Of a stretch of 64,000 bases of DNA, positions 5,456-43,075 are shown in pieces. A model generated the notes under the pieces. The model had not been told where the DNA came from. It did no database searches and worked only from the letters and a program-made list of their open reading frames with translations. A program made the position numbers and the translations under genes. The DNA comes from Methanobacteriota archaeon (GTDB lineage: Archaea; Thermoplasmatota; E2; DHVEG-1), in contig CAVYNH010000006.1 in assembly GCA_963769885.1 (NCBI GenBank), forward strand, positions 576,001 through 640,000, given 5' to 3'. The stretch's first letter is position 1, and each line of letters opens with the position of its first letter.

Positions 5456-5624
5456 TTATTATTCCTCCAGTAAAATCAAGGCATATAGAGGGGCCCTGGC
5501 TTTAAATAATTAACCCTGCCCCGGAGCCTCCCTCCTCCTAAGACTGTCAACAGGCGTCTATTATTTGTCTCCAAACATTTAAAAGCGGCAGGGTCGTTGA
5601 CTATCTATTGGAGGATAACGGTCT

Positions 5625-7100: not shown

Positions 7101-7323
7101 AGCGACCTTGGTCCGTTGGAAACTAGGGGGCCGGCCGTGGAGCGGGCCGCTGTGCCGGGGTCGACTCAGCAGCGAGCCGTCGAGCGCGAGGGATGGCGTT
7201 CGCGGGTTGAGGGGATTCTCTGGTGAAACATCACGGGTTTCGTTCGCAAGCCCGCCTCCTTTTATTAAATTTAATAGATAGATTTAAATTGTATATCGGT
7301 AATTATTCTTCTCAGGAGGAAGC

Positions 7324-8844: not shown

Positions 8845-8875
8845 AGAAGTCTAGTCTCTGACAACGAAAGCGAGA

Positions 8876-8932
8876 TGGGCAGCGCTCCGCCCCTTTCGGC
8901 CGTTTGCCCCTTCTTTTTTTCCTTTTTTCACT
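8876..8932 (+). terminator. GC-rich hairpin followed by a T-rich tract
   Basis: gggca...tgccc followed by ttcttttttttccttttttca after the stop codon. Confidence 0.45.
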
Positions 8933-9019
8933 TGTCCACTTAATAACCTGGTAGAACGATGGTGTTAGGTAAATTTAAATATAAATTGCCACATGTATTT
9001 TAATCAGAGGGCTAATATT

Positions 9020-11740
9020 ATGAAGAAAACAAATAATTTAGTAATGGGGATAGTAGTCCTGGCAATGTTATTTGCCACATTCTCAAGTGCAAACGGAATA
9101 ATGACAAAGAAAGGCTCTGAGACGCTCAACGAACGGTACATCAGCGTCTCGGACTCAACGATTTTGCTCAAATTATGGGACGTAAAAACCGGCGCGGAAG
9201 TCGTGCCCTATTACGCCATCAGCCTTAATGATGGAGCCACGTACGTCAGAACCGTCCAGGCGTCGTACGAGCTGGGGCTGCGGTATGCGCATTTCGATCC
9301 CTTGGTCAGCACCCCAACCGTTCGATCCATGCTGTCGTCCGGCCCGGATACTCATCTCTACATCGTGCAATTCGTGTGCCAGCCTCTAGAGAACTTCAAG
9401 AGCGCGATCGAGTCCCTTGGCGGGCATGTCCGGCAGTATATCGCCCAATACGCCTACCTGGTTGACATGAGCCAGACCGTGAAGACTCAGGTCCAGTCCT
9501 TGCCCTATGTGAGATGGATCGGCCCGTACCAGCCCGCGTATAAGCTTGACGAGTTCATGCTGCAGAACCTCGACAACGCACAGACCGCGTACCCGTCACA
9601 AAGCTACAACATCCAAGTTCATTCTCTCGAGATGAAAGAAGTGGTTGCCGACAAGATCGCCGCGCTCGGCGGCACGCAGGTCTGGGCAGATGCCGGCAAA
9701 GTACTCGTCCAGGCGACGCTCACTCCGGAGCAGCTGTTCCAAGTCGCCCGCTACGATGAAGTGAACTTCATCGACCGCTGGAGCCCCTACGAGCAGGATA
9801 TGGATATCACCCGCGTCATCAGCGGCGCAAACTACATCGAGACTGCCGGCGGCTTCAACGGCACAGGCGTCCGCGGAGAGGTCTTCGACGGGGGCGTCAA
9901 CCGCAACCACGTCGACTTCCAACTCCATCCCTTGATCGTGCACGGGCCCTCCTGCGGCAGCGACTCCCATGGGTCAGCGACCACGGGCATCTGCTTTGGG
10001 ACGGGAACAGGCGACCCCAAGGGTCGCGGGCTGTGCCCCGACGGCCAGGGGATTGTGGCTGATTACAATGTGATTGGTCTGTCAGGCGCTAGCCGGTACG
10101 CTCATGATCTCGAGATGGCGCAGGATCCCTGGGACTGCGTCTTCCAATCCTCAAGCGTCGGGGACGCTCAAGTGACCCAATACACGACCATCTCCGCGGA
10201 CACGGATGCCGCGATCTTCGATTCCGATGTTGTTCACTGCCAGTCCCAAAGCAATATGGGAACTCAGTATTCCCGTCCGCAGGCCTGGGCGAAAAACATG
10301 ATCTCCGTCGGCGCAGTTTACCATTATGACACGCTAACCCGGACTGACGATATGTGGAACGGCGGGGCGAGCATCGGTCCCGCAAGCGACAATAGGATCA
10401 AGCCGGACCTGTTGTTCTTCTATGACATGATTTACACCGTCGGCTACCCAGGCAACACTGCTTACACCGCGTCGTTTGGCGGAACTAGCGGCGCGACGCC
10501 GCAGACCGCCGGCTGCGTGGGCCTGTTCTTCCAGATGTGGTCCCAAGGGATCTTCGGCAACCCCGTGACCCCGGGCGCGACCGTCTTCCAGAACAAGTGC
10601 CATTTTACGACCGCCAAGGCGATGATGATTGACACTGCCTACCAGTACCCCTTCAACGGGACGAGCGGCGACAAGATCCGCTGTCACCAGGGATGGGGCA
10701 TGCCGAACCTGACGACCATGTATGACCGACGCAATCAGTTCTATACGGTCGATGAGACCGACATCCTCGCTCCGTTCCAGACCGGCACCCACACGGTCTG
10801 CGTCGCCGCTGGGCAGCCGGAGCTGAAGGTCGTCATGACCTACGCGGACGTACCCGGGAACCCCTCGGTCCAGACCCAGCACCGCATCAACGATCTGACG
10901 CTGAAGGTCACTTCGCCGTCTAGCACGGTCTACTGGGGGAACGGCGGTCTCTATGAGCATATCTATTCCACGCCTGGCGGCAGCGCCGACACGAAGAACA
11001 CCGTGGAGTGCGTGTTCGTCCAGAACCCTGAGCCCGGGGTATGGACGCTTCAGGTCTCTGCCGATGAGATTCTCGCGGACACCCATGTAGAGACCCCCGC
11101 GATGGATGCTGATTATGCCTTGGTCGCCAGCCCCGTGATGGGAGGACCTCAGCCGCCGACCATCAATGGGTCATCAGAAGCCTACGTCGGAATTCCCGCG
11201 AACTACACGGTTGTCTCCAGCGACCCCCTCGGAGGGGACCTCTACTATCGGATCGATTGGGGCGATGGGAATATGACGGACTGGTTCGGACCTTTCGCAT
11301 CAGGCGTCCCGGCTCCTGCCTCCCATACCTGGATGATGGCGGGCGACTACTCGATCATCGCGAAGGTCAAGACCGCGACCGCTGAGAGCGGCAACTCCAC
11401 TCCCTTCCCTGTGACGGTCTACGGTCCCGTCCTCTCCCTGAGCACGATGACGGGCGGGCTGTTTTTTGTAAAGACGAAGATAACGAACATCGGTGAGTTA
11501 GAGGCTCGGAACGTGAGCTGGAGCATCGATCTCGACGGCAAACTCGTCCTCCTCGGAAGGCACTCCAATGGGACCGCCGGCAACATCCCGGTGGGCGGCA
11601 ACGTGACCGTCAAGTCGAAGTTCATCCTCGGCTTTGGGTCGAGCCATTTCACCGCTACCGCAGTCGAATACTACGGGTATACTGCCTCGAGGAAACAGTC
11701 GGGAATGCTCTTGGGCTTCTTCATCAAGGTGAACCCGTAG
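9020..11740 (+). CDS. Secreted S8 (subtilisin-like) serine peptidase with PKD and the shared C-terminal domain
   Basis: Catalytic triad contexts VFDGG, DSHGSATTG and GGTSGATP; RIKPDL; propeptide region; YRIDWGD. Confidence 0.9.
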   Translation: MKKTNNLVMGIVVLAMLFATFSSANGIMTKKGSETLNERYISVSDSTILLKLWDVKTGAEVVPYYAISLNDGATYVRTVQASYELGLRYAHFDPLVSTPTVRSMLSSGPDTHLYIVQFVCQPLENFKSAIESLGGHVRQYIAQYAYLVDMSQTVKTQVQSLPYVRWIGPYQPAYKLDEFMLQNLDNAQTAYPSQSYNIQVHSLEMKEVVADKIAALGGTQVWADAGKVLVQATLTPEQLFQVARYDEVNFIDRWSPYEQDMDITRVISGANYIETAGGFNGTGVRGEVFDGGVNRNHVDFQLHPLIVHGPSCGSDSHGSATTGICFGTGTGDPKGRGLCPDGQGIVADYNVIGLSGASRYAHDLEMAQDPWDCVFQSSSVGDAQVTQYTTISADTDAAIFDSDVVHCQSQSNMGTQYSRPQAWAKNMISVGAVYHYDTLTRTDDMWNGGASIGPASDNRIKPDLLFFYDMIYTVGYPGNTAYTASFGGTSGATPQTAGCVGLFFQMWSQGIFGNPVTPGATVFQNKCHFTTAKAMMIDTAYQYPFNGTSGDKIRCHQGWGMPNLTTMYDRRNQFYTVDETDILAPFQTGTHTVCVAAGQPELKVVMTYADVPGNPSVQTQHRINDLTLKVTSPSSTVYWGNGGLYEHIYSTPGGSADTKNTVECVFVQNPEPGVWTLQVSADEILADTHVETPAMDADYALVASPVMGGPQPPTINGSSEAYVGIPANYTVVSSDPLGGDLYYRIDWGDGNMTDWFGPFASGVPAPASHTWMMAGDYSIIAKVKTATAESGNSTPFPVTVYGPVLSLSTMTGGLFFVKTKITNIGELEARNVSWSIDLDGKLVLLGRHSNGTAGNIPVGGNVTVKSKFILGFGSSHFTATAVEYYGYTASRKQSGMLLGFFIKVNP

Positions 11741-11744
11741 GGAA

Positions 11745-11790
11745 GGCTAAAGGGCTCTTTAGCCCCTCTCCTCTTTTTTTCTTTCTTCTG
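11745..11790 (+). terminator. Hairpin followed by a T-tract
   Basis: ggctaaag-ggct-ctttagcc followed by a pyrimidine/T run. Confidence 0.6.
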
Positions 11791-11841
11791 CCTGAGCCAC
11801 AAGCAGTTTCAAAGAAACAATTTTTTTTTTAAAAAAACTAA

Positions 11842-11880
11842 CGGCCAGAGTAGGATAGTGCTAGGCCAATAGGAGGAATC
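11842..11880. repeat. Degenerate att-like junction copy
   Basis: taggatagtgctaggccaataggagga aligns without gaps to caggaagcgacgaggtcaacaggagaa at 22433. Confidence 0.45.
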
Positions 11881-12039
11881 TGAAGGGATAGAACGCACTA
11901 ATTAGCATGCCGGTTCCTGGAGCTGATGAGATTTGACTTTTTCGCTCCTTAAGTATTTACTTTAAAATCATCAGGAAATTAATATAAATACGAAATTAGA
12001 TGATAAAGCATATTTAGTTCAAGGGAGGAATACAAGAAT

Positions 12040-14028
12040 ATGAGAAGGTTATCTGTTGTCTTAATAGTAAGTCTGCTGATGATAAGCTGGGTACCAATCC
12101 TAAGTGCCCAATGGACTTCCAATCCCGCTGAAAACACGGCAATTACCATGATGGGTGGCGAACAGGCGCTGCCGAAGATCGCTGTTGATAGCGCCGGGTA
12201 TGCATACATCTCATGGTTTTCAATAGAAGGGGGGAATTATAATGTGCGGATGCAGCGTCTGGATCGTGATGGCAATGCGCTGTGGGGCGCAAATGGTGTG
12301 TTGGTCAGCGGCCAGCCTCAAGCGAGCTCGCTGACCGACTACGACCTGACCGTTGATTCGGCTGGGTATTCGGTTGTCACCTTTTCCGACATACGCACAG
12401 GTCAACTGAATCCTGTCGGGTATCGAGTTGCTCCGAACGGTACCATGATGTGGGGTCCGACCGGCGTCCTGCTTACAAACGACACCAACTATGACCCGAG
12501 CCCAAAAGTGTGCACCACGCCCGCTGGAAACAGCGTTTTTGCATGGCAAAGCTGTCCGGATACCGGCAACTATCAAGTCCGTCTGCAAAAAGTCTCGCCG
12601 GCCGGACAGAAGTTATGGGGGAACAGCATCATCATGACGCAATCTGGTGTTGATTATGTTTCCCCGTACTTGCAGCCGGCGGAGAACGACAGCGTGTACG
12701 TGATCTGGCATAAGGCGACCGGCTCGCACCTCTATCCCAATCGTGGGCTCTATGTGCAGAAGCTCGATGCGAACGGGAATTTCATGTGGGCATCGGCCCT
12801 GGAAATCTACGCCCCGGTCCCAGAGGGTCCGGTGGTGAATCTCCAGATGTGCAGGGACGATGTCGGAGGAATTATCTTCACTTGGTATCTTTCTACCGAC
12901 ATTAGCCACTTTTACTGTTATGTGCAGCGGATGGATGCCAATGGTACGATCAGCATGCCTGCCAATGGCGTGCTCGCGTCGACGTCGACGGCACGGATTC
13001 ACATGTATCCAACGCCGGCCTTTTTGAGCCAGACCCGTCAGATCGTCCTCTTCTTCAGCGAGCAGGATTTAAACCAGATTATGCGCGGCATGTATGCTCA
13101 GAAATTCGACCTTCAGGGCAACCGACTGTGGGGTGACGAAGGGAAAGAGTTGATTGGGCTTTCGAATAATGATTACTTCCTCCTGTTTGCTGGTGGGAAT
13201 GACAACAAGGCGATTTGCACCTATCAGGCTGCTGAACCTGGAAGTAGTCCCTATACCAAAATCCAGGCCGTGATGCTCGACGATTCGGGGAATTTCACGT
13301 GGCCGGGGCATTTCGTTGATCTGTGCACTGTTCTAAGCTCGAAGCTGCACAACGTGATGAGCCAGTATTATATGGGGCAATGGGTCGCGGTGTGGGAAGA
13401 CCTACGCAACGATGACGGGGATATCTATGCCCAGAACATCCAGCCAGACGGCACCCTTGGTCCTGTGGTGAACCAGCCTCCTGTCGCTGATTTCACCTGG
13501 ACGCCGTCCGACCCCTCGCCTGGCGAGGCCGTGCAGTTCACCGACCTTTCGCATGATCCCGTCGGGGATATCGTGAATTGGTCGTGGGATTTCGGCGATG
13601 GCAACACGAGTTTCGCTCAGAATCCGACGCATCTATACACACTGCCGGGGATGTACACGGTCAGCCTGATGGTGACCGATAACGATGGCGCCAATGGCAG
13701 CGTCTCGAAGAACCTTACCGTGATCAATCCGTACCTCAACATCACCATCAAACCCGGTGTCGGTCTTGGCATCACAGTGATTTTCAACAACAGCGGGCCA
13801 ACCGCCGTGCTCAAGGAGCCCTATGAGATCACGGTGAAAGGGGGAGTCCTCGGGCGTATCAACAAGCGTGTGAATGATACCGTCGATATCCCCGCTGGTG
13901 GGTCGACACCCGTCAAGACAGGGATGCTGTTCGGGTTCGGGGCGCTCAAGATCACCGCGAAGCTCGCTGACAAAGAACAGACCGCAACCGGAACGCAGAT
14001 CATCATCTTGACACTGGTGAAGAAATAG
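12040..14028 (+). CDS. Secreted repeat protein with a PKD domain and the shared C-terminal domain
   Basis: Signal peptide; repeated YxQR/KLDxxGNxLW units; WSWDFGDG PKD motif. Confidence 0.8.
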   Translation: MRRLSVVLIVSLLMISWVPILSAQWTSNPAENTAITMMGGEQALPKIAVDSAGYAYISWFSIEGGNYNVRMQRLDRDGNALWGANGVLVSGQPQASSLTDYDLTVDSAGYSVVTFSDIRTGQLNPVGYRVAPNGTMMWGPTGVLLTNDTNYDPSPKVCTTPAGNSVFAWQSCPDTGNYQVRLQKVSPAGQKLWGNSIIMTQSGVDYVSPYLQPAENDSVYVIWHKATGSHLYPNRGLYVQKLDANGNFMWASALEIYAPVPEGPVVNLQMCRDDVGGIIFTWYLSTDISHFYCYVQRMDANGTISMPANGVLASTSTARIHMYPTPAFLSQTRQIVLFFSEQDLNQIMRGMYAQKFDLQGNRLWGDEGKELIGLSNNDYFLLFAGGNDNKAICTYQAAEPGSSPYTKIQAVMLDDSGNFTWPGHFVDLCTVLSSKLHNVMSQYYMGQWVAVWEDLRNDDGDIYAQNIQPDGTLGPVVNQPPVADFTWTPSDPSPGEAVQFTDLSHDPVGDIVNWSWDFGDGNTSFAQNPTHLYTLPGMYTVSLMVTDNDGANGSVSKNLTVINPYLNITIKPGVGLGITVIFNNSGPTAVLKEPYEITVKGGVLGRINKRVNDTVDIPAGGSTPVKTGMLFGFGALKITAKLADKEQTATGTQIIILTLVKK

Positions 14029-14065
14029 GGAAGACGACTTCCCTTTCTCCCTTCTTTTCTTTTTA
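14027..14065 (+). terminator. Hairpin followed by a pyrimidine tract
   Basis: agggaag-acga-cttccct followed by a long T/C run. Confidence 0.6.
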
Positions 14066-14089
14066 AATTTCTTACGATAGCCTAGCTTC

Positions 14090-14146
14090 TTTTCCTGTTG
14101 CAGGAATGGGCCCGGCATGGTCCGGTTCCCGTCAACAGGAGAAAAT
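14090..14146. repeat. att-like junction: tRNA-Ile 3' core inside an inverted repeat
   Basis: tgggcccggca (11 bp identical to the tRNA-Ile 3' end) plus gtcaacaggagaaaat (16 bp identical to 22447-22462); tcctgttg/caacagga inverted repeat. Confidence 0.7.
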
Positions 14147-14414
14147 CGGATCGACAAACCCCTGTTTTTGGCCAGTGTCGATTTGCCAACCTTGGTATCA
14201 ATCTACCCTCTTTTTTTCTTTTTATGTACTTTTCAAAGCGCTTGATATTCCGCAGGGTAATGAGCCAAAATCAAATTCCCATACTGGTTAATAGTCGGGG
14301 GTGGGAGTAATAGAAAAAACCGTCTTCTCCAGTAGAAGGAATTTAATTTCTTCCAAACATTTAAATGAATTAACAGACATTATATCCGTAATGAATAAGG
14401 GCGGGAAAGACCAC

Positions 14415-16730
14415 ATGAGAACTACTCTCTGGACCAAAATAGTTGTTATAAGCATCATCCTCTTTCTCGGCACAGGTGTTGTCCCGGCAATCAACGGAAA
14501 CATCGAGCATAATGTGCAAGGTAGTCAATCAATAAAAACGATGCAACTTTCATCGTCCGCACTTACCTTTGACCAGACCTCTATTGCGTCACTTGCAAAC
14601 CCAGACGAACTGCCAATTGAAAAAATCGTCTCTAACAACGTCTACGTACAATCACCAAATCATCGACCGATTCTCGAATCGAATAACACCATGATTACCC
14701 AACCCTTAGACAACGATATCTATCGCACAGGGGATCTTATCGACATCGAAGGAACCGCAGACGGCGCAAATTTCCAATACTACACCGTCGACTGGGGGAT
14801 TGGCGAAAACCCCAGCCAATGGAACACTACCGGCATCACTCTCACCAACGACGGCCAAGAACCTATCGCCAACAACACCCTCGCCACCTGGAACACCAAC
14901 TTCGCCACCACCGCCAACTACTACACCCTCAGACTCACCGTCAATTACACCACCTCCCAAGACACCGCCCTCATCATCGACATCTACATCGACCCTGCCC
15001 TCAAACAAGGATGGCCACAACACATCCCCTTCGAATGGACCCCAGACGGCTTAACCTATTACTGGGCCGGATTACTTGAACCTGCCGTCGCTGACATCAA
15101 CAACGACGGCTACTCTGAAATCATCGCCTACAAAGGCGGAAACCCACCGAAACTGGATTGCTTCAGCCAAGACGGCACACTCCTCTGGGAAGCCCCCGTC
15201 GGAAACACAGATTCACCTGGTGGGAACCTCAACTACCCCGTCATCGGAGACGTCAATAACGACGGCTACGATGAAATCGTCGTCTTCCATTTCCTGCACT
15301 TCGACTTCGACCATTCACAAGTCTACGTCTTCGGCCACAACGGAGCAGTCCTACTCGGCTGGCCTGTCACACTCCCCAAAGAATTTCACGCGACAATCAT
15401 CATCGCCGATGTTAATAACGACGGATACCGGGATATCATTTTCAAAGGAAACGACGCCAAAAACCGAATGCTCATCGTCCTCGACCACACAGGATCAATA
15501 ATCACCCAATTTCCACTTTACCACGTAAATTGGGGAAGCTTCATCGAACCCTGCCCAACCGTCGGAAACTTCGACAGCGACCCAGAACTTGAAATTGTCA
15601 CCGCCGATCCTAGTGAATACGCCGGCTACAACTCGACCTCAGGACAATGGAACAACACCGGCGTCATTCACGTCTACAACCTCGACGGCACCGAAGTACC
15701 CGGATGGCCAGTTTACACCCCTGGTGTCATCTTCTCCTCGCCAGTTACTGCAGACATCAACAACGACGGCTACCCCGAAATCATCGTCGGACTCGAATTC
15801 GCCGGCGACGCACCCAACCCAGACTATGGCGGCCTCTACGTCTATGACCACAACGGCTATGTCCTCCCCGGCTTCCCCTTCGAAAAAGGCTGGAACTTCG
15901 CCTCCACACCCGCCGTCGCAGACTTCGACAACGACGGCTACCTCGAAATCACCGCCAGCCGACTCGGATTCTACACCTACGTCATCCACCACGACGGAAC
16001 ACTCGCAGCCGGATGGCCACAAACCACAATCTGGAACGACTACTACTCTACTATAGCCGGAGATGTCGACGGCGATCATATTCCCGACATCGTAACCACT
16101 GCTGGCAATGGATTCTGCCCCATCTACCAACCCGGCGGCGTCTATGCCTGGAAATACGACGGCACACCCATCCCCGGATTCCCCAAAGTCACTGAAGGCG
16201 ACGCACAAGCACCAGCCACTATCGCCGACATCGACAACGACGGCAAAGTCGAAATCATCGCCAGCTCCGACTGGGATATGGACTTCCAGACAGCCTCCTT
16301 CAAAGAACGAGGAACACTCTACGTTTGGGACATCAACACCACCTACAATCAAACCACGATGCTCTGGCCAACCTTCCACCTCAACACAGAACGCACCGGC
16401 ATGATCCCAACATCACCCATGCCATACCTCATAATTGGAAACATCACCGGAGGATTCTTTAAAATCAAATCAACCATCAACAATATAGGCACCGCACCAG
16501 CAACCACTATCCAATGGAACATCACGCTAACAGGCGGACTCATCCTCATAGGACGAAAAACAACCAGAACCATCTCAACGCTCAATCCCAGCATGGAACA
16601 AATCATTATGTCGAAAGCCATTATTGGTTTCGGAAAAACAGTGATCACCATCACGGCCGCCATACCAAGGATGACCGTGACAAAGCAACAGAACGCAACC
16701 GTGAGGTTGTTTTTCATTCACACGAACTAA
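14415..16730 (+). CDS. Secreted FG-GAP/VCBS-repeat beta-propeller protein with the shared C-terminal domain
   Basis: About seven P.xADINNDGYxEI repeats with GWP motifs; WPTFHLNTERTG. Confidence 0.85.
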   Translation: MRTTLWTKIVVISIILFLGTGVVPAINGNIEHNVQGSQSIKTMQLSSSALTFDQTSIASLANPDELPIEKIVSNNVYVQSPNHRPILESNNTMITQPLDNDIYRTGDLIDIEGTADGANFQYYTVDWGIGENPSQWNTTGITLTNDGQEPIANNTLATWNTNFATTANYYTLRLTVNYTTSQDTALIIDIYIDPALKQGWPQHIPFEWTPDGLTYYWAGLLEPAVADINNDGYSEIIAYKGGNPPKLDCFSQDGTLLWEAPVGNTDSPGGNLNYPVIGDVNNDGYDEIVVFHFLHFDFDHSQVYVFGHNGAVLLGWPVTLPKEFHATIIIADVNNDGYRDIIFKGNDAKNRMLIVLDHTGSIITQFPLYHVNWGSFIEPCPTVGNFDSDPELEIVTADPSEYAGYNSTSGQWNNTGVIHVYNLDGTEVPGWPVYTPGVIFSSPVTADINNDGYPEIIVGLEFAGDAPNPDYGGLYVYDHNGYVLPGFPFEKGWNFASTPAVADFDNDGYLEITASRLGFYTYVIHHDGTLAAGWPQTTIWNDYYSTIAGDVDGDHIPDIVTTAGNGFCPIYQPGGVYAWKYDGTPIPGFPKVTEGDAQAPATIADIDNDGKVEIIASSDWDMDFQTASFKERGTLYVWDINTTYNQTTMLWPTFHLNTERTGMIPTSPMPYLIIGNITGGFFKIKSTINNIGTAPATTIQWNITLTGGLILIGRKTTRTISTLNPSMEQIIMSKAIIGFGKTVITITAAIPRMTVTKQQNATVRLFFIHTN

Positions 16731-16747
16731 ACCAAACCCGAGCAACA

Positions 16748-16783
16748 AAAGAGATGCGGTCGGCAGGAAGCAGACAGGCGACC
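16748..16783. repeat. Degenerate att-like junction copy
   Basis: aaagagatgcggtcggcaggaagc versus aaatagatgggcccggcaggaagc at 22417; 11/14 match to the tRNA core. Confidence 0.55.
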
Positions 16784-16919
16784 GAGAGTAAGAGGAGGTG
16801 AAATATTCTGCTGCGTTGTGTGTTCTACTGCGTTTTTAAACCAATCAGGTTAAATATCACCGGAGGATTATAGATGTTTTACCCTTCAAGTTTTCTAGAA
16901 AATAAGGGAGGTAATATCA

Positions 16920-18189
16920 TTGTCCCTTGAAAGTCGACAGAGATTATTAATCGATAAAAAGCGGGTTGATGAAGTCAATGCTTTTTTTATGGATCCATCG
17001 AATAAGCTCATTCAAGATCTACTGGTGCTAGTAGAAAAATATGGAGGACCTGAGGAGATCAATCGAAAAGCACGGGAGAATGGCTCCATTGAATCGCTTC
17101 TGTCCCGTCTTCAAACGAAACACTCGCCGTATGTCAAGGATTTAGAATGGCTTTATAAACAGCGGGAAAAGCAGTCGTTCATTAGCGTGGATGAATACCG
17201 ACGGAGAATCCTCGGAGATCGAGTGAAGAAAATAACTGTTGATGAAGACTATGCAGTTACCCTTGAAATAAGCGCGTGTCAATATTTCCCTTTTTTTATG
17301 GTGGAAGCACGACAAGCACTTGAAAAAGAACAGTTGTTGCCAGGTCGTTTCATCCGTGTGCGTCGCATGAAGGAACAGGAACAAGACGACGACCTGCTCG
17401 CGATAAATGCTGCGATGCAGATTATTGGGGCGAGCTGGTGCGATACCTTGGATACGCGTGGAACTGATGGATCAAATGTTCATCTCGGAGGCCCAGAGAC
17501 CATTACAGGGTATTTTGGGGGTGTTGGGCAGCCAAATGACCATGCGATCCGCTGGGTAAATGAACTCCTCTACTACTACACCAACTATGGTGTACGTCAG
17601 GGTACTGAATGTCAATTCAGGGACGATTCTGTTGGGATATCTGCTCCATAAGCTCGGCATTGATATCGAGTTTAAGATTTCTGTCTTCATGGGGAATGAT
17701 AACCCGTATGCCGTGTTCTGGACGCTGATGGCTGCTCGGCTGTTTTCCCGGGATGACGGTTCCACCTCGTTAATCGGGTTCAACTTTTCAAACTCCGTGG
17801 ATAATCTCAGTATTGAGATGAGTGCTGACATCCGACGGTCTCTTGGGCTGGAGAGATACGTTCGATTTGAGCATCATATTCTGGAGACTTGGAAAAGCAT
17901 CGTCGTGCAACCGTATGATCGTCGGGAGGAGCTGTTAGATCTCGCCACAAAGGTGAAGAACATCAGCGCCAAGCATGAGGGTGGGGAACTCGTGGTGGAA
18001 CAACAACGGGCCCATCCCTCCGATATCCTTGACTATTTCCTTTCTAAGGAGGAAATCAACGAGAAAGGATTGATGTCCGATCTCCTCCAAAATTATCTGG
18101 ATAAACATGAGGCGATTAACAATACCGCGAAGGCGTTGACTGAAAAAGGTCTAGCATTTATTGCTGCATCAAAACTGCATCACAGGTAA
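16920..18189 (+). pseudogene. Uncharacterised enzyme-like gene of about 422 aa, split by one extra G at about 17600-17602
   Basis: GGAGGT RBS with TTG start; the two overlapping ORFs join as ...NYGVRQ|VLNVNSGT if one G of cag-g-gta is removed. Confidence 0.7.
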
Positions 18190-18199
18190 GGGATAATAC

Positions 18200-19243
18200 A
18201 TGCATTTCAAATTAGCGTTTATTGGCTTTGGAACCGTTGGACAAGGACTGGCTGAGATATTAGTAGAAAAAAAAGAGATGCTCTCGAAAAAATATGATTT
18301 CCAGTATACGGTTGTAGCCATTTCTGATATCATGAAAGGCTCTGTCTATGAGAAAGATGGTCTTGATTTGAAAAAGATCCTCGAACTCGTGAAAAAAGGG
18401 AAAAAGTTGGATGAGTACCCCGCCGGTAAGAAAGGTATGGATGGTCTCACGACAATCAAGGAAACGAATGCTGATACCATTATCGAGGTGACGTACACTG
18501 ATATAAAAACAGGTGAACCAGCGACGACGCACATCAAGACAGCTCTGAACGCTGGGAAGAATGTTGTCTCCACAAACAAAGGTCCGGTTGTTCGAGAGGC
18601 GAACGCTCTGTTAGATTTAGCTAGAAAGAAGGAGGTTCACTATGGTTTTGAGGGAGTTGTCCTCGCTGGAACACCTGCGTTAAATCTAGTCAAATACACT
18701 CTTGCAGGTACTAACATTAGGGGGTTCAAAGGGATATTGAATGGTACAACCAACTACATTTTAACCCGCATGGGCGAAGGCATGTCCTATGAAGATGCTT
18801 TGAAAAAAGCCCAAGCCCTTGGGTATGCTGAGGCCGATCCAACAGCAGATGTGGAAGGTATTGACGCAATGGGCAAAGTCGTTATTTTGACAAACGTCGT
18901 GTTAGAAAAAAATATTACAGTGAACGATGTACAAAGGAAAGGTATTACTGAAGTTACACAAAAGGATATCAAGGATGCAGCATCTGAAGGGAAATGCTGG
19001 AAATTAATTGGTAGTGCAGAGGTGCAAGCAAATGGCTCAGTGAAGGCAAGAGTCTGGCCTGAGAAACTGCCTTTGAGCGATCCGCTTGCAGGTGTGAGAG
19101 GTGCGACAAATGCGCTGACCTATTCCACTGATGAACTCGGTCCGGTCACGATTGTCGGACCCGGTGCTGGTCGCCGTGAGACAGGGTTTGCGTTGCTAAT
19201 CGATCTCTTAAACCTCAATCGCGAAATGCAAAAAACCCCTTGA
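18200..19243 (+). CDS. hom: Homoserine dehydrogenase (no ACT domain)
   Basis: IGFGTVGQG, VVSTNKGP, GILNGTTNYIL, GYAEADPTADVEGID and GPGAG..ET motifs. Confidence 0.92.
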   Translation: MHFKLAFIGFGTVGQGLAEILVEKKEMLSKKYDFQYTVVAISDIMKGSVYEKDGLDLKKILELVKKGKKLDEYPAGKKGMDGLTTIKETNADTIIEVTYTDIKTGEPATTHIKTALNAGKNVVSTNKGPVVREANALLDLARKKEVHYGFEGVVLAGTPALNLVKYTLAGTNIRGFKGILNGTTNYILTRMGEGMSYEDALKKAQALGYAEADPTADVEGIDAMGKVVILTNVVLEKNITVNDVQRKGITEVTQKDIKDAASEGKCWKLIGSAEVQANGSVKARVWPEKLPLSDPLAGVRGATNALTYSTDELGPVTIVGPGAGRRETGFALLIDLLNLNREMQKTP

Positions 19244-19295
19244 GAGAAAAAAGAATTCGCCCTTGGAGGATAGATAGAATGGACGGGGAAACTAC

Positions 19296-21131
19296 ATGAC
19301 CGGCGGATACACTGGGACAACCCTTATCGTTGATCTCTCGACACAACAAACCAGAAGAGAAAGCACAAGGATAGATGATGCCAAACTGTTCATTGGTGCA
19401 AAAGGCCTTGGTGCAAAACTGCTCATCGATCGCCTTCCTAAGGGTACCGATCCTTTCTCCCCGGTGAACCTCCTGATGTTTGGAACCGGGCCATTAACAG
19501 GGACGTCAGCACAAACGTCTGGCCGAGGAACAGTGATCACCAAATCACCACAGACTGGATTGTTTGTGGATTCCCATTTCGGTGGCGCGTTTGCCATGGA
19601 GATGAAACGATGCGGCTATGATATGATCGTGTTCTCTGGCAAATCGAAAACCCCGACCTATATCACCATAGCAGATGACCATATCGAATTCAAAGACGCC
19701 GCACACCTCTGGGGAATGGAGTGCCTGAAAACCCACGAATGGCTGCAACAAAATGAAGGGCGCGTGAAAACCGCGGTGATTGGTCCAGCAGGGGAACATC
19801 TCGTAAAGTTTTCTGCGATTACCTTTGATGGTCACCGTCATGCGGGTCGCTGTGGCACTGGGGCAGTGATGGGGTCGAAACTCTTGAAAGCCGTGACTAC
19901 GCAGGGGACGTACAACATACCACTGCATGACCCTCAGCAGTTTCAAGAGCTCTCAAAAAGAGTTCTACAAAAAATCCAAGAACATCCATTTGTCCCTATC
20001 CGAAGGGAATATGGGACGCCATTCTGGGTGAAACCAATCAATGACGGGGGGCTGCTCCCCACACAGAATTTTCAGGAAGGCGTATTTGATCATGCACAGG
20101 GGATTACCGCAGAAACCATGCAAGATCGTGTTGTCGACAAGGGTGGCGCCTGTTGGAACTGCGTGATTGCCTGTTGGAACAGATCCAGCGTGAAATCAGG
20201 GCCGTTCAAAGGAACCTCGCTGGTGGGCCCAGAGTATGAGACCTTGGCGTTGATGGGATCAAATTGCGGCGTCGCAAGTGTTGAAGAAGTCGCGTATTTG
20301 AATGAACGATGTAATGAGCTTGGGATGGATACGATCTCCCTAGGTAATGTGCTTGCGTTCACCATTGAATGCGTTGAAAAAGGTATTCTTTCAACAAAGG
20401 ATCTGTTAGGCATCAATATCGGCTGGGGGAAAACAAGAGAACTCGCTCAGCTGATAGAGGCAATTGCCTATCGGAAAAATGCCGCCTGTGATGCCCTAGC
20501 GGATGGTGTCTATATAGCGTCTCGTCGGTTCGGAAAAAAGGCTGAGCGTATCGCGGTGCATGTGAAAGGCCTTGAGGTACCAGGATATGATCCTCGAGGG
20601 AGCGTTGGCATGGGTCTTGCGTATGCCACCTCTGATCGCGGTGCCTGTCATCAGCGCGCGTGGACGGTGACCACCGAGATGAATAATCCAGAGTATCAGC
20701 GATTTTCTTTTACAAAGAAAGCGGAGTTGGTGAAACGGATTCAGGATGAACGTGCCGCTTTTTTTTCTTTGGTATTCTGTGATTTTGCACCTATTTCTGA
20801 GGAGGATTGCGTTGGATTGTGGAATCATGCAGCAGGTTTTAATCACACCGTTGAGAGCTATCTATTAGCGGGTGAGAGGATTTGGAATCTCATTCGACTG
20901 TTTAACCTCCGGGAGGGGATGAACCCAGGAACTGATCGATTACCACCGCGTTTTCATAAAGACGCTTTCACGAAAGGCCCTGCAAAAGACAGAGTCCTCA
21001 ATGAAAATGAGTTCAACAAAAGTCTTCAAGAATATTACGCGCTTCGTGGATGGAATGAAAAAGGGATTCCCACCAAAGAAAAACTCAATCAATTAGGGTT
21101 GACATCGTATGCGAAGTCCATTGGTCTGTAA
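19296..21131 (+). CDS. aor: Tungsten/molybdopterin aldehyde:ferredoxin oxidoreductase family protein
   Basis: KSPQTG, AGRCGTGAVMGSK, CWNCVIAC, GPEYET, GMDTIS, YDPRG and RGACH motifs. Confidence 0.92.
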   Translation: MTGGYTGTTLIVDLSTQQTRRESTRIDDAKLFIGAKGLGAKLLIDRLPKGTDPFSPVNLLMFGTGPLTGTSAQTSGRGTVITKSPQTGLFVDSHFGGAFAMEMKRCGYDMIVFSGKSKTPTYITIADDHIEFKDAAHLWGMECLKTHEWLQQNEGRVKTAVIGPAGEHLVKFSAITFDGHRHAGRCGTGAVMGSKLLKAVTTQGTYNIPLHDPQQFQELSKRVLQKIQEHPFVPIRREYGTPFWVKPINDGGLLPTQNFQEGVFDHAQGITAETMQDRVVDKGGACWNCVIACWNRSSVKSGPFKGTSLVGPEYETLALMGSNCGVASVEEVAYLNERCNELGMDTISLGNVLAFTIECVEKGILSTKDLLGINIGWGKTRELAQLIEAIAYRKNAACDALADGVYIASRRFGKKAERIAVHVKGLEVPGYDPRGSVGMGLAYATSDRGACHQRAWTVTTEMNNPEYQRFSFTKKAELVKRIQDERAAFFSLVFCDFAPISEEDCVGLWNHAAGFNHTVESYLLAGERIWNLIRLFNLREGMNPGTDRLPPRFHKDAFTKGPAKDRVLNENEFNKSLQEYYALRGWNEKGIPTKEKLNQLGLTSYAKSIGL

Positions 21132-21150
21132 CACAGGTCTCTGAGGAGTA

Positions 21151-22320
21151 GTGCGAAACATGGTGAGCGTAAGCGAGGGAGCGAAACGGATTTATGGTGA
21201 GGCTGCCTTCGAAGTCCTTGCCAGGGCTCAAGAACTCGAGCGACAAGGGAGGCACGTGCTTCATTTTGAAATCGGCGAGCCGGACATGGAAACTCCTCGA
21301 AACATCGTCCAGGCGGGAATCAAGGCGATTCGTCAGAGAAAAACCCATTACACTCCCTCCGTCGGCATTGCGGAGCTTCGAAAGGCTGTGCAAGATGAGG
21401 TGGAAAAAACACGGAGGTTTCGCCCTGATTTCGATCAGGTCGTGATTACTCCTGGGTTGAAACCAGGTATCTTTTTTTCCATGCTCGCGCTTGTGAACCC
21501 TGGAGATGAAGTGATCTTTCAGGATCCAGGGTATCCCACCTACGGCTCTGTCACCGAGTTTCTTGGAGCAACAAGCGTTCGTATTCCACTGCTAGAAGAA
21601 AATGAGTTCCGTATGAACCCTGACGATGTTCAACAGCGGATTACACACAAAACAAAAGGAATCATCGTCAACTCTCCACAGAACCCCACAGGATCGGTCA
21701 TGACCCAGAAGGAACTCGAGGAGATTGCAGAGATTGCTGAAGAACATGATCTGTTTATCATTTCAGATGAAATCTATTCGAAGATGATTTATGATATGGA
21801 CCATTATTCTCCTGCTGTGAGAGATGAAGCAAAAGAACGTTCTGTGTTATTAGAGGGATTTTCCAAGTATTACGCGATGACTGGGTGGCGCCTTGGATAC
21901 GTGATAGCACCAGTGGAGGTGGCCCATCGATTAGCGGATTTTTTAGTCAGTGCAGTCTCGTGCACCGCTTCGTTTACCCAGTGGGCAGGTATTGAAGCTT
22001 TGACCGGTGATCAAGCCTTTATTTCTCAGATGATGACCCGCTTTAGAAAAAAACGTGATCGTATCGTCAAAGGGTTGAACTCCATTCAAGGCTTTCACTG
22101 CCTCACTCCTCAGGGTGCATTTTACGCGTTTCCAAATATCACAAAAACAGGGCTACATTCAAAGGAGTGTGCCGAAAAAATTTTGTCTGAGGCTGGGGTC
22201 GCCTGTCTTCCTGGGACGGCGTTTGGTCCTTATGGCGAAGGATATCTTCGATTTTCCTATGCGACTTCATTAAAAACCATTGATGAGGGGATTAGGAGAA
22301 TCAAAGAATTGTTTGAATAG
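21151..22320 (+). CDS. PLP-dependent class I/II (aspartate-type) aminotransferase
   Basis: IGEPD, NSPQNPTG, SDEIY and GFSKYYAMTGWRLG motifs. Confidence 0.92.
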   Translation: MRNMVSVSEGAKRIYGEAAFEVLARAQELERQGRHVLHFEIGEPDMETPRNIVQAGIKAIRQRKTHYTPSVGIAELRKAVQDEVEKTRRFRPDFDQVVITPGLKPGIFFSMLALVNPGDEVIFQDPGYPTYGSVTEFLGATSVRIPLLEENEFRMNPDDVQQRITHKTKGIIVNSPQNPTGSVMTQKELEEIAEIAEEHDLFIISDEIYSKMIYDMDHYSPAVRDEAKERSVLLEGFSKYYAMTGWRLGYVIAPVEVAHRLADFLVSAVSCTASFTQWAGIEALTGDQAFISQMMTRFRKKRDRIVKGLNSIQGFHCLTPQGAFYAFPNITKTGLHSKECAEKILSEAGVACLPGTAFGPYGEGYLRFSYATSLKTIDEGIRRIKELFE

Positions 22321-22369
22321 AAGATAGAGGCCCTCCAGAAAATAAACATGGCGACATACGGGAATCTGA

Positions 22370-22495
22370 AGATTGTTTGGTGGAAAATCGTCAATCTTCT
22401 ATATTTTCTCCGAGAAAAATAGATGGGCCCGGCAGGAAGCGACGAGGTCAACAGGAGAAAATTTTTTAGATTGTTTGCCGATTTTCGCTCAATCT
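22370..22495. repeat. Symmetric attP-like site centred on a 14-bp copy of the tRNA-Ile 3' end
   Basis: AGATTG-N16-CAATCT arms at 22370-22397 and 22468-22495; attttctcc/ggagaaaat inverted repeat; core tgggcccggcagga at 22424-22437 identical to 23796-23809. Confidence 0.85.
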
Positions 22496-22766
22496 AAATT
22501 TTGAAGAATGGTTCTTTTTTCACTAAAACATACTCTATTTTTTCTTCCCTTTTTCTAAATTTTTGATGCTTCTATTGGGAAAACCTACTAATTGTAAAAT
22601 GCTCCTAGGTTGAAGGATTTTTCACCAATTGCTAGACTGTTCTCCGAGGAAGTTGTTCGCTAAATCTTCAAGGCTTAGCTACCGAAGGCCGCAGGAGGGG
22701 AGAGATAGATCTACTGTGAAATCTCTGCATACAAATTATTGCCGTAAACAAGTATTTTTTCTATGC

Positions 22767-23210
22767 TTATACCAATCGATAATCCTCTTTAACCACCTCT
22801 AACACCACATGTGTGTTTGTTCTTTCTACGTACGGTATGGAAAGAACAGTCTTTGTAAATTCACTGAGTGTTTTTCTGTTCTTGAACTTCGCAATTGCAA
22901 CTGCATCAAATTCTCCTGTGACATCATACATTGCACACACATTGGAAATCTTGGCAATTTCATTTTCGACTTCAAGTAATTTTCCTTTTGATACGATGAT
23001 TTCCGTGATAGCGGTCAGTTCGTAACCAAGCTTCTCGTAATCTGTTATCGCCGAATATCTGCGTATGATTCCAGCGTTTTCCATTTTCTTTATTTTCATA
23101 ATAACAGTTCCGACTGAGACTTTCACTTTTTTAGCTATTTTCCTGTTTGAGACTCTCGCATTTTCAAGAAGATTTTTTAGTATATTGACGTCTGTCTTAT
23201 CCAAATCCAT
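22767..23210 (-). CDS. Lrp/AsnC family transcriptional regulator
   Basis: MDLDKTD..IL..L..NAR HTH start; YDVTGEFD RAM-domain motif. Confidence 0.92.
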   Translation of the reverse strand: MDLDKTDVNILKNLLENARVSNRKIAKKVKVSVGTVIMKIKKMENAGIIRRYSAITDYEKLGYELTAITEIIVSKGKLLEVENEIAKISNVCAMYDVTGEFDAVAIAKFKNRKTLSEFTKTVLSIPYVERTNTHVVLEVVKEDYRLV

Positions 23211-23255
23211 AATGAACCTCTGCCATTATACATATTTCCAATATTTATTAAATTT

Positions 23256-23271
23256 TTGGACAATTGTTCAA
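23256..23271. promoter_or_regulatory. Palindromic candidate operator in the divergent Lrp promoter
   Basis: ttggacaattgttcaa, a near-perfect palindrome in the AT-rich divergent intergenic region. Confidence 0.4.
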
Positions 23272-23356
23272 TATTTTTAAAAATAGCTTTATATGTATTC
23301 ATATTTATTAATGCTTTCAAAATTATTAACAAGAATCAAGGAGAGGTGAAACATCT

Positions 23357-23731
23357 ATGAAAACCATCGGGTATTTAGAAGGAACAGATCCGGAGTTCTT
23401 AACGACGCTTGTATGTAAGGGCTATCGAACGTTACCAATTGGGAACGATACCGATAACCATGGAAAAAACATCGCATTCATATCAATCGCAGATAAAATC
23501 GATCTCATCGTCGGATATCTCCACAAGGTATCCCCACTCCCAGGAATGACCAAATCCCTCAGCGAGTTCCTCACACCAGGGATTCTCCATCAAATACCAA
23601 TTCTCTTACTCGCCCCCAAAGACCTGTTCCCTGAAGCAAAGAAGATAGTATCAAAAGCGACCATGAGTAAAAATATCAAAGTGGTTGATCCAAAAAATCT
23701 TAGGACCGAAGCATTAAAAATCCTCCGTTAA
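23357..23731 (+). CDS. Small alpha/beta hypothetical protein
   Basis: GAGGTGA RBS; 124-aa ORF with GYLEGTD, DNHGK and VGYLHK segments. Confidence 0.75.
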   Translation: MKTIGYLEGTDPEFLTTLVCKGYRTLPIGNDTDNHGKNIAFISIADKIDLIVGYLHKVSPLPGMTKSLSEFLTPGILHQIPILLLAPKDLFPEAKKIVSKATMSKNIKVVDPKNLRTEALKILR

Positions 23732-23795
23732 AACTATTCTATATGTAATTCAAAAAAGAATAGCAATCTATCACGTTTTTTCCGAGAGAAAAAGG

Positions 23796-23869
23796 TGGGC
23801 CCGGCAGGATTTGAACCTGCGACCAACTGGTTATGAGCCAGTCGCTCCACCGGTCTAAGCTACGAGCCC
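23796..23869 (-). tRNA. tRNA-Ile2(CAU); elongator Met is less likely
   Basis: GGGCTCGTAGCTTAG...CTGGCT-CAT-AACCAG...GGTTCAAATCCTGCCGGGCCCA; GGGC acceptor stem typical of archaeal Ile tRNAs. Confidence 0.85.
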
Positions 23870-26855: not shown

Positions 26856-27884
26856 ATGCGGGAGCTGCCGACCCTTGCGAAATACCCCTTCCTCTCTGAG
26901 ACACGCCAGTACATCAAAGACCACGGCCCTGCCATCCCCGACCTCCTCCACAACCTGCCCTACGAACGCGCCCGCCTCACCAGCATCGAACGCCTCGACA
27001 ACGCCCTCAAAGACAGTGACGTCGGCGAACGCAGCCTCGCCACCGACGCCGACTGCATCATGGAGATCCTCAGCTACCCCCTCGCCCGCATGATCACCGC
27101 GTGCATCAACGACCCCTATTTCAAACGCCGCTACGCCCTCGGCGAAGCCTACCACACCTACAAATACCTCCTCACCGAGCCCACCTCCTTCCTCGCCGCC
27201 ATCGCCATCGAACTTGGCCTCCACGTCCACTACACCCCCGAGACCCGCCTCCAACTCCATTTCAAAGACTACCTCAGGTACGCCCCCACCACCTACAAAG
27301 AATGGAAGATGGTCAACCGCGAACTCACCAAAGGCTATGTCGCCCTCTCACACAAAGACCTCACCAGAGTCGTCCAAGAGACTCTCCGAGCCCGCATCAA
27401 CACCGAGCTCGCCGACCGCCCCTGCGACGACGACGTCACCCGCGCCTTCGCCGACGACATCCGTCGCCTCCAAGCCGTCCTGCAGCAACGCCACCAGCGC
27501 CAGGACGCCGCCCCCGTCGGCACACTCCAACCTTCCTGCCTCCCCCCCTGCATGACCGACCTCCTCGTCGCCACCCAAGCCGGCGAGAACGTCCCCCACA
27601 TGGGCCGCTTCGCCCTCGTCGCCTTCTTCAACAGCCTCAAACTCAGCCCCGCCGACATCCAACGCCTCTTCAGCACCGCCCCCGACTTCGAAGAAGAAAA
27701 AACCCGCTACCAGATTGACCACATCACCGGCGCAACCAGCAGCACCTCGTACAAATGCCCCGGCTGCGACAAGATGCGGACCTACGGCATCTGCCCCATC
27801 GACAAGATGGACGGCCTCTGCCGTCGAATCCGCCACCCCCTCAACTACTACACCGCCAAATGGCGCCAGGAGCAGCATAAATGA
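26856..27884 (+). CDS. priL: DNA primase large subunit
   Basis: KYPFL, LSYPLAR, LPPCM, HMGRF, TRYQIDHI, YKCPGCDKM and HPLNYY motifs. Confidence 0.93.
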   Translation: MRELPTLAKYPFLSETRQYIKDHGPAIPDLLHNLPYERARLTSIERLDNALKDSDVGERSLATDADCIMEILSYPLARMITACINDPYFKRRYALGEAYHTYKYLLTEPTSFLAAIAIELGLHVHYTPETRLQLHFKDYLRYAPTTYKEWKMVNRELTKGYVALSHKDLTRVVQETLRARINTELADRPCDDDVTRAFADDIRRLQAVLQQRHQRQDAAPVGTLQPSCLPPCMTDLLVATQAGENVPHMGRFALVAFFNSLKLSPADIQRLFSTAPDFEEEKTRYQIDHITGATSSTSYKCPGCDKMRTYGICPIDKMDGLCRRIRHPLNYYTAKWRQEQHK

Positions 27885-42932: not shown

Positions 42933-42985
42933 CCCGGGTAATCTCCCCGGGGTATTTCAAATGAACCACCGTGAAAAAGAGGGAG

Positions 42986-43075
42986 TCCCGCCTCCCGGAT
43001 TTGAACCGGGGACCTGCCGGTCACGGCCGATAGGGTCTACAGCCGGCCGCTCCAGCCAGACTGAGCTAAGGCGGG
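42986..43075 (-). tRNA. tRNA-Tyr(GUA) with a 15-nt intron at position 37/38 (about 43022-43036)
   Basis: CCCGCCTTAGCTCAG...GCCGG-CT-GTA-G[ACCCTATCGGCCGTG]A-CCGGC...GGTTCAAATCCGGGAGGCGGGA; C1-G72 pair. Confidence 0.9.

Follow-up and report, generated by a model that had tools for sequence, protein, structure and literature searches.

How do genes that carry no recombinase of their own come to stand in a row behind a single tRNA? The question is raised by a 64,000-nucleotide stretch of DNA (the window; C6:576001-640000) of G000, an archaeal genome of 2.09 Mb in 7 contigs that is 92% complete, in which blocks of genes are separated by copies of the 3' terminus of a tRNA bearing the anticodon CAT. 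A sequence-only reading had described at least four such cassettes, taken up in turn by a recombinase acting in trans and forming a chronological, integron-like array. The sequences that it quoted are all where it placed them, and modules are gained and lost exactly at the repeats in related contigs, which bears out the sequential, site-specific capture of modules without their own recombinase at the tRNA 3' end. We consider it probable that the array was built by tandem site-specific accretion, at tRNA-Ile2(CAU), of helper-moved, integrase-free modules resembling cis-mobilizable elements (CIMEs).

Junctions at the tRNA 3' end

The anchor of the array, and its attB, is the tRNA at 23794-23869 (minus strand, called by ARAGORN). 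It is 83% identical to tRNA-Ile(GAT) of G000 and has the same 3' acceptor strand, the next-best tRNA being 72% identical, so that assignment as tRNA-Ile2 is plausible and it is probably tRNA-Ile2(CAU); the second CAT tRNA of G000 is clearly different. The 14-nucleotide (nt) core at 23796-23809 comprises the discriminator base and the 3' strands of the acceptor stem and the T stem. The tRNA stays intact, and direct repeats of its 3' end bound the inserts, with cores at 23796, 22424, 22327, 16755, and 14107.

The repeats at 22424 and 14107 are real. The first is a 14/14 copy (22424-22437) and the second has two mismatches with its first 11 nt exact (14107-14120), and these 11 nt occur three times in the whole genome: in the tRNA and at these two junctions. 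A 16-nt right arm has two genome-wide copies, 9 to 10 nt past the 14-nt core position at the same two junctions, and the left flank described earlier for 22424 and the tRNA is also confirmed, with 'caatct' lying 32 nt ahead of the core at both. A scan with a junction profile, proposed as a check, gave a divided result. The nhmmer profile built from 11 junctions, all from other genomes, matches 22424 at E=3.6e-10, and 14107 is matched weakly unless G000 sequences are included (versions of 11 to 13 junctions were run, some with G000 sequences); neither 16755 nor 11842 is recovered. Across the window, the 14-mer at three or fewer mismatches has 8 matches versus 9.3 expected, which is the chance level, and both 16755 and 11842 are therefore nonsignificant on statistics alone. 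The match at 16755 extends to 14/17, with 11 sites that good genome-wide; it is nonetheless a true junction by its orthology to an intact one in a relative, as described below. For 11842, the composite of core, gap, and arm is equaled or bettered by 350 genome sites, and the degenerate junction claimed at 11842/11864, and with it the boundary of a fourth, PKD-containing cassette, is not beyond chance and is not supported. An interpretation of the arm motif as a ribosome-binding site or as coding sequence was rejected, as no consistent open reading frame (ORF) or start codon follows it and the frame varies among copies. On contig C1 of G000 (77 kb, 50.7% GC, below most of the genome), the CAACAGGAGA arm motif is present in pairs 103 nt apart, at 6725/6828, 12614/12717, and 66417/66520.

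The module next to the tRNA (cassette 1, 22438-23763; no integrase by Pfam) codes for an Lrp/AsnC regulator (22767-23210, minus strand; Pfam) and for ORF124 (23357-23731, plus strand), a product of 124 amino acids (aa) with no assigned family; homologues of ORF124 in genomes G014 and G018 were considered and are not linked to a tRNA or to lrp. On the tRNA side the module ends in a short P' arm (23764-23795), 'caatct' followed by a T-rich/A-rich palindrome around CCGAGA, which has the same layout and spacing as 22392-22423; similar arms are found after tRNA-Pro(TGG) and at the junctions of L171 and L173, two of three metagenome contigs (L171, L172, and L173) that carry the operon of cassette 2. 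At its other end is a long P arm (~22438-22560) that is 81 to 84% identical to arms of L172 and of a further contig, L143, which carry different cargo. The core at 22424 is the center of a dyad-symmetric site of ~130 bp (22368-22498), and directly outside this core lies a vestigial unit without cargo (22341-22423) consisting of a remnant P arm, with an AGATTG-N16-CAATCT hairpin, and a P' arm. This hairpin is a direct repeat of that in the P arm of cassette 1, and the unit is present in G000 and L173 and not in L171 or L172; what looks like the left 'arm' of the symmetric site is thus, for the most part, this unit's P arm. It is probably the stump of a deleted element, and possibly of a helper. 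Next comes an eroded core (22327-22340, 9/14), 6 nt past the stop codon of aat and missed by the earlier reading, which is orthologous to intact cores in L171, where it is the 3' end of the tRNA itself, and in L172.

Cassette 2 (16769-22326, plus strand) also has no integrase by Pfam and is an operon, with a first gene for a protein of ~424 aa with no assigned family (16920-18189), hom (18200-19243, plus strand), aor (19296-21131, plus strand), and an aminotransferase gene, aat (21151-22320, plus strand), the last three assigned with Pfam. The first gene is frameshifted near 17600 and is read as two ORFs in G000, split by an extra G (GGG versus GG in L171; 17560-17651), and is a single ORF of 424 to 438 aa in relatives. 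A contig of a ~98% identical strain (run X2) is one base short at 17600; this is either a real pseudogenization or an error in a low-coverage metagenome-assembled genome (MAG). The eroded core at 16755-16768 (11/14, or 14/17 when extended) separates the operon from cassette 3 (14121-16754, plus strand), which codes for an FG-GAP repeat surface protein (14301-16730, plus strand; Pfam) and begins on the left with a P arm, in which the 16-nt motif occupies 14131-14146; its right-hand P' arm is eroded. In the junction region at the outer end of the cassette (14090-14120), the arm motif stands inverted (14090-14100) ahead of the core at 14107-14120, and an inverted motif is equally placed at junctions of G020 and G088, two genomes of the same family set. 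Noncoding stretches of 150 to 330 nt separate the junction cores from the next gene.

Gain, loss, and transfer of modules

With the aminotransferase as a query of metagenomes, three loci with a closely related operon were found (L171, L172, and L173), and among 80 metagenome loci these are the only ones at which a junction or the tRNA lies no farther than 10 kb from the operon. Over 5582 nt, the L171 operon is 82.7% identical to that of G000. It is bounded on the left by an intact P'-core-P junction, the core of which (5611-5624) aligns exactly to 16755-16768 in G000; this identifies 16755 as a real junction, eroded in G000. L171 has other genes where G000 has the FG-GAP cassette. The right end of the L171 operon is the tRNA itself, 6 nt past the aat stop codon, and there is no Lrp cassette. 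In L172, the identical stop codon is followed by the same 6 nt, the core, and a P arm 84% identical to that of G000, and then by a 4.1-kb cassette without an integrase, coding for AbiEi-like and FG-GAP_2 proteins, and a second junction. The Lrp cassette is thus an insertion into the core, and among L171, L172, L173, and G000 the presence/absence breakpoints fall at the att core, which is the outcome predicted for a comparison of tRNA-Ile(CAU) loci among relatives. In genome G015, the operon is 2 kb from the same tRNA, with no recognizable junction.

The youngest module is the one adjoining the tRNA, as L171 has no Lrp cassette, L172 holds another cassette at that very nucleotide, and GC content at third codon positions (GC3) rises outward. 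GC3 is 0.37 to 0.46 in cassette 1, 0.42 to 0.48 in the operon, and 0.62 in the FG-GAP gene, and then 0.66 and 0.76 with growing distance from the tRNA, compared with 0.72 to 0.85 in the native flanks and a genome median of 0.68; the blocks do differ in composition, and those nearest the tRNA are foreign in character. The chronological order claimed earlier holds in that the youngest insert is beside the tRNA, although preservation of the junctions does not fall steadily with distance, 14107 being better kept than 16755. We compared the window with public sequencing runs as assembled contigs only, from which rare forms are dropped. One run (X3) matches the window at ~100% identity and is probably the source sample, and in a ~98% identical strain from another study (runs X1 and X2) one contig covers 20334-23811 unbroken. 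The Lrp cassette is thus fixed in that strain as well; 7001-17144 has little or no coverage in X1 and X2, which is not readable as absence.

The same tRNA site is used in other genera. In a family set of 108 genomes, scanned together with a reversed-sequence control, the core-plus-arm pattern has 5 matches and exact non-tRNA copies of the core are present in 7 genomes of 7 genera, with none of either in the control. On the upstream side of the tRNA, the gene at 26856-27884 is kept in nearly all relatives, and it is the downstream side that varies. Two of these relatives have integrases beside the tRNA. In G088 the order is the tRNA, an integrase of 436 aa (PF00589), a gene without an assigned family and an N6/N4 DNA methylase gene, and arm-core-arm, and in G069 a 306-aa integrase adjoins the tRNA and is followed by two further junctions. 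G020 has the tRNA, the same two restriction-modification (R-M) genes as G088 without the integrase, and arm-core; the R-M modules of G020 and G088 are 86.7% identical in nucleotides, with proteins 85% and 97% identical, are bounded by the same arm and core, and the 30-nt arm on the tRNA side in G020 is the arm lying beyond the junction in G088. G075 and G077 share a 3.7-kb ArsP/DsbD module that is 91.6% identical, with homology stopping at the core; the cassettes seen in these two genomes lack an integrase, and G077 has three junctions. L039 and L043 have degenerate second cores ~1.35 kb from the tRNA, each enclosing single genes. We note that contigs binned as Nanoarchaeota and Clostridia (L143, JAHJDK010000141.1, and L151, CAYYAU010000399.1) have the same core and P arm at 81 to 85% identity, and L143 runs on into a PD-(D/E)XK/Cas4-like nuclease gene and genes without assigned function; this is either misbinning or a more widely distributed mobile element. 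The longer arm pattern was found in L143 and one unrelated contig and in no viral contig, and the arm-pattern scans yielded no autonomous relative for the cassettes of G000 itself. Matches that were set aside include 67 of the pattern among all species genomes, which are mostly chance occurrences in GC-rich bacteria, and the sole IMG/VR match (L154), a chance match in an apparent coding sequence.

The operon has a history of its own. Its proteins are 88 to 90% identical between G000 and L171, except for Hom at 70%, whereas for the host gene adjoining the tRNA the identity is 65% between these two and 85% between G000 and the same-genus genome G001. In L171 the host DNA (44.5% GC) and the operon (44.2%) are alike, and in G000 the genome is 55% GC and the operon copy 47%. 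Another location is evident in the single-contig genome G008 and in G011, in which the operon adjoins orthologues of G000 C6:761503-761787, and in G008 also of 762195-763385. These two genes are adjacent in G000 with no operon between them, an empty ancestral site that G001 also shows (80% identity over 2954 nt); neither hom nor a close aat homologue was found in G001. Because the operon proteins are so much more alike than the host gene, and because the chromosomal site is empty in G000, the comparison indicates that an integrase-free cassette of 5.6 kb has passed from one genus to another, entering at the identical nucleotide of the tRNA. The hom gene of G000 (18200-19243) is only 70% identical to L171:7052-8089, in contrast with its operon neighbors at 88 to 90%, and is closer (76 to 77%) to genera in which the operon lies beside the ancestral-site genes (G008 and G011) or on other contigs, which suggests that the operon may be a mosaic.

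Farther from the tRNA, a PKD-domain protein gene (12040-14028, plus strand) lies within a block at 11842-14089 whose outer boundary, placed earlier at a junction at 11842-11878, is not established, and an S8 peptidase gene (8993-11740; Pfam) lies beyond it. Synteny with G001 resumes only to the left of ~7064. Proteins of the outer island (7324-16730) are all of secreted or surface types (S8, PKD, and FG-GAP), and a C-terminal region of ~115 aa of a G001 protein matches many G000 loci. In a contig of run X6, the 175 nt between 14032 and 14208, which contain the entire 14107 junction, are replaced by 18 other letters, with the PKD and FG-GAP sides still joined; it may represent a variant without the site or a different organism. 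Elsewhere in the window, ARAGORN calls a 91-nt tRNA with a four-base anticodon (gtag) at 42985-43075, which probably contains an intron.

Integrases and the route of the modules

We searched G000 for recombinases with PF00589 (six-frame, reading through stop codons, E up to 0.01), PF16795, and PF00239. The window has no match to PF00589 or PF16795, and no PF00239 recombinase nearby, in agreement with the earlier reading that it contains no integrase. Of eight PF00589 matches in the genome, none is inside this array or those at tRNA-Glu(CTC), tRNA-Pro(CGG), tRNA-Leu(CAA), and tRNA-Arg(GCG) described below, and the nearest is 37 kb past the window end; among these tyrosine recombinases elsewhere, a list of which had been suggested, no integrase cognate to this array was found. 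The SSV-type integrase (PF16795) has no match anywhere in G000 and no ORF runs across the cores, and the sole serine recombinase of G000 is distant, on another contig. No relative of the G088 integrase is detectable by sequence among solved structures.

The array is not the only one of its kind in G000, in which repeats of tRNA 3' ends lie downstream of many tRNAs. There are four repeats at tRNA-Glu(CTC) (C6:3273-22246) and two each at tRNA-Pro(CGG) (C1:42299-46197), tRNA-Leu(CAA) (C4:197724-200111), and tRNA-Arg(GCG) (C7:72971-88962), and a further region is at tRNA-Pro(TGG) (C7:200081-208517). The cargo of these arrays is mostly integrase-free and includes phosphofructokinase, pyruvate kinase, an MNT-HEPN pair, nitroreductase, and an IS200 transposase. 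The 8.4-kb tRNA-Pro(TGG) element codes for an integrase 37% identical to that of G088 and a tape-measure-like protein, and the same arm motif, equally spaced from the element's own tRNA core, marks its end; related arm motifs follow several other G000 tRNAs.

A mechanism that accounts for these arrangements would be as follows. The attP of one family of tyrosine-integrase elements, composed of a long P arm (the CAACAGGAG motif and a hairpin), a tRNA-derived core, and a short P' arm, would recombine with the last 14 nt of tRNA-Ile2(CAU). Every insertion would restore the tRNA, shift earlier inserts outward, and leave a core copy at each boundary, yielding, in window orientation, B'-core-P ... 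P'-core-P ... P'-core-tRNA, as expected of the standard attP x attB scheme. Outward from the tRNA, the order would be the Lrp/ORF124 cassette, the cargo-less stump, the hom-aor-aminotransferase operon, the FG-GAP cassette, and possibly older PKD material. An integrase-bearing helper of the same family could have moved the units, either as their neighbor in a composite that excised and integrated by way of the outer sites, or in trans, and could then have been lost by precise excision, giving the state of L171, or by deletion, leaving a stump such as 22341-22423. The anatomy of the junctions, the changes exactly at the core, the foreign composition, the movement of the operon between genera, and the integrases beside this tRNA in two relatives are observed; by what route the integrase-free modules traveled, and which integrase acted on them, we infer. 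The recombinase acting in trans that was proposed earlier is thus one of two conceivable helpers.

Several observations weigh against helper-dependent accretion. No cognate integrase was found in the 92%-complete G000 genome, and its best homologues of the G088 integrase are 37% and 31% identical, at tRNA-Pro and tRNA-Arg. At the internal junctions 16755 and 22327 erosion is in progress, which means that these two at least are no longer maintained, and in all four genomes holding it the operon cassette is nearly devoid of a P' arm. Excision or circle joints, which the earlier reading had offered as a check, were not seen in the public contigs, from which rare forms are dropped. An enrichment of integrase-free inserts could also come from survivorship bias alone, given that an element retaining its integrase is prone to leave.

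The strongest competing explanation, which we regard as distinctly less probable but as a serious one, is that each module is the stump of an autonomous element whose own integrase was later deleted, with no helper-dependent mobility at all. Integrase loss after integration is documented for integrated elements of archaea (PMC8371274), and the integrase lies at the P' end beside the tRNA in G088, G069, and the tRNA-Pro element of G000, so that one deletion could remove it. The cargo-less stump at 22341-22423 and the eroding internal junctions fit such decay, as does L143, in which the same P arm ends a virus- or plasmid-like element with a Cas4-like nuclease. However, the six-frame search through stop codons found no PF00589 fragment at E up to 0.01 in this or the other integrase-free arrays of G000, and the youngest, tRNA-adjacent inserts lack an integrase in G000, G020, G075, L039, L043, and L171. 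The operon cassette, moreover, is integrase-free in two genera and bounded by the core each time.

An integron-like platform, in which a resident integrase encoded elsewhere would capture, store, and reshuffle small cassettes with palindromic sites of their own at many tRNAs, seems improbable. It would account for the presence of arrays of up to four repeats at at least six G000 tRNAs, for the many units of 1 to 2 kb with toxin-antitoxin, defense, or metabolic cargo, for the arm motifs common to the arrays and two resident integrase-bearing elements, and for the dyad symmetry of the 22424 site. That symmetry, however, comes for the most part from two P arms that follow each other in direct order; the arrays have no linked integrase, the 16755 and 22327 junctions decay as if neutral, and the Lrp cassette is fixed in the ~98% identical strain from another study. 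Nor is any identical cassette found at two positions or two tRNAs, the MNT-HEPN pairs of G000 and G075, considered as the same cassette and rejected, being 22% identical. That no mobile element was involved, and that the repeats arose by chance or by segmental duplication of the tRNA flank, is hardly credible even with the 14-mer at chance level in the window and 11842 nonsignificant, as the exact motifs are found genome-wide at this locus alone, identity breaks off sharply at the core edges, presence/absence switches exactly at the core, and the same sites are found in seven genera, with integrases in two.

Accretion of helper-moved modules is therefore the explanation that we prefer for this array. 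A broader proposition, that the lineage of G000 runs a genome-wide, helper-dependent economy in which integrase-free modules of 1 to 8 kb with long P and short P' arms, among them whole metabolic operons taken from their chromosomal site, are captured at many tRNA 3' ends, stockpiled by order of arrival, and exchanged between genera, as a tRNA-anchored archaeal analogue of integrons, is speculative and we advance it tentatively. The locus offers a nucleotide-level example of the collection of accessory genes by archaeal genomes; a whole operon of amino-acid/aldehyde metabolism is absent from its usual site and is found, as an integrase-free cassette bounded by att sites, at a tRNA, and a nearly identical cassette is at the same tRNA in another genus. 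With the similar arrays at several other tRNAs of G000, this suggests that helper-dependent cassettes are a major route of gene flow in uncultured Thermoplasmatota, and the conserved arms and two candidate integrases make the mechanism testable in vitro.

Comparison with known systems

The closest counterparts are the CIMEs, known from ICESt1/CIME of Streptococcus thermophilus, for which integrase-free units bounded by att sites, and their accretion, are documented (PMC5704250). Like CIMEs, which keep attL and attR, code for no integration genes, and are arranged in tandem at a target gene's 3' end with chimeric att sites between units (PMC5704250), the G000 cassettes keep their att sites and have neither integration nor transfer genes. 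A possible relation to an autonomous element using the same att site is seen in the R-M module, which in G088 accompanies an integrase and in G020 does not; for the cassettes of G000, no such relative was found. CIMEs can move with an integrase-bearing neighbor through the outer sites, as the G000 units may have done. The G000 units differ from CIMEs in having an archaeal host without known conjugation machinery, and in that each array comprises several units and the genome several arrays.

Tyrosine-recombinase elements of both archaea and bacteria are documented to form tandem arrays at tRNA sites (PMC6563490, PMC8371274), and 'gene capture in archaeal chromosomes' was described by She et al. 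2001, as that work is cited in PMC8371274. The G000 array resembles the archaeal ones, in which tyrosine-recombinase elements reuse one tRNA, form tandem arrays, and become trapped in the chromosome (PMC8371274, PMC6563490), and it has the direct repeats, the breakpoints at the core, and the foreign DNA expected of integrative elements at tRNAs, without an encoded integrase. Capture in Sulfolobus and Thermococcus uses SSV-type integrases that split their own gene; in contrast, no split integrase gene flanks the inserts here, PF16795 is absent, and the integrases of the family are intact beside the tRNA. The tRNA-adjacent islands that tycheposons build in Prochlorococcus, of successive cargo elements split by partial tRNAs (bioRxiv 10.1101/2020.12.28.424599), are similar in that newcomers push older cargo inward to the island, leaving degenerate remnants and extra partial tRNAs, and in their adaptive metabolic cargo. 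Tycheposons, as described, carry their own integrase and a replication module, with activity shown by PCR, whereas the G000 units have no integrase.

The likeness to integrons that the sequence-only reading had proposed is no more than an analogy, the defining features of integrons being absent. Integrons combine the IntI integrase with an attI site and attC cassettes, and have been reported in archaeal MAGs too. Like them, the G000 arrays are ordered sets of small, recombinase-free cassettes with the newest at the primary site, commonly with toxin-antitoxin cargo and with partly palindromic sites. Unlike them, the present array has no IntI, attI, or attC; the junctions consist of a core derived from the tRNA 3' end and family-specific arms (judged without an attC model), and the cassettes, of 1.4 to 5.6 kb, are on either strand with long upstream noncoding stretches, rather than co-oriented and promoterless, lrp and ORF124 being on opposite strands (minus and plus, respectively). 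The array is not an integron, and is instead a known way of building islands, here in archaeal form, in which the transfer of an integrase-free metabolic operon between genera and the number of such arrays in one genome are notable.

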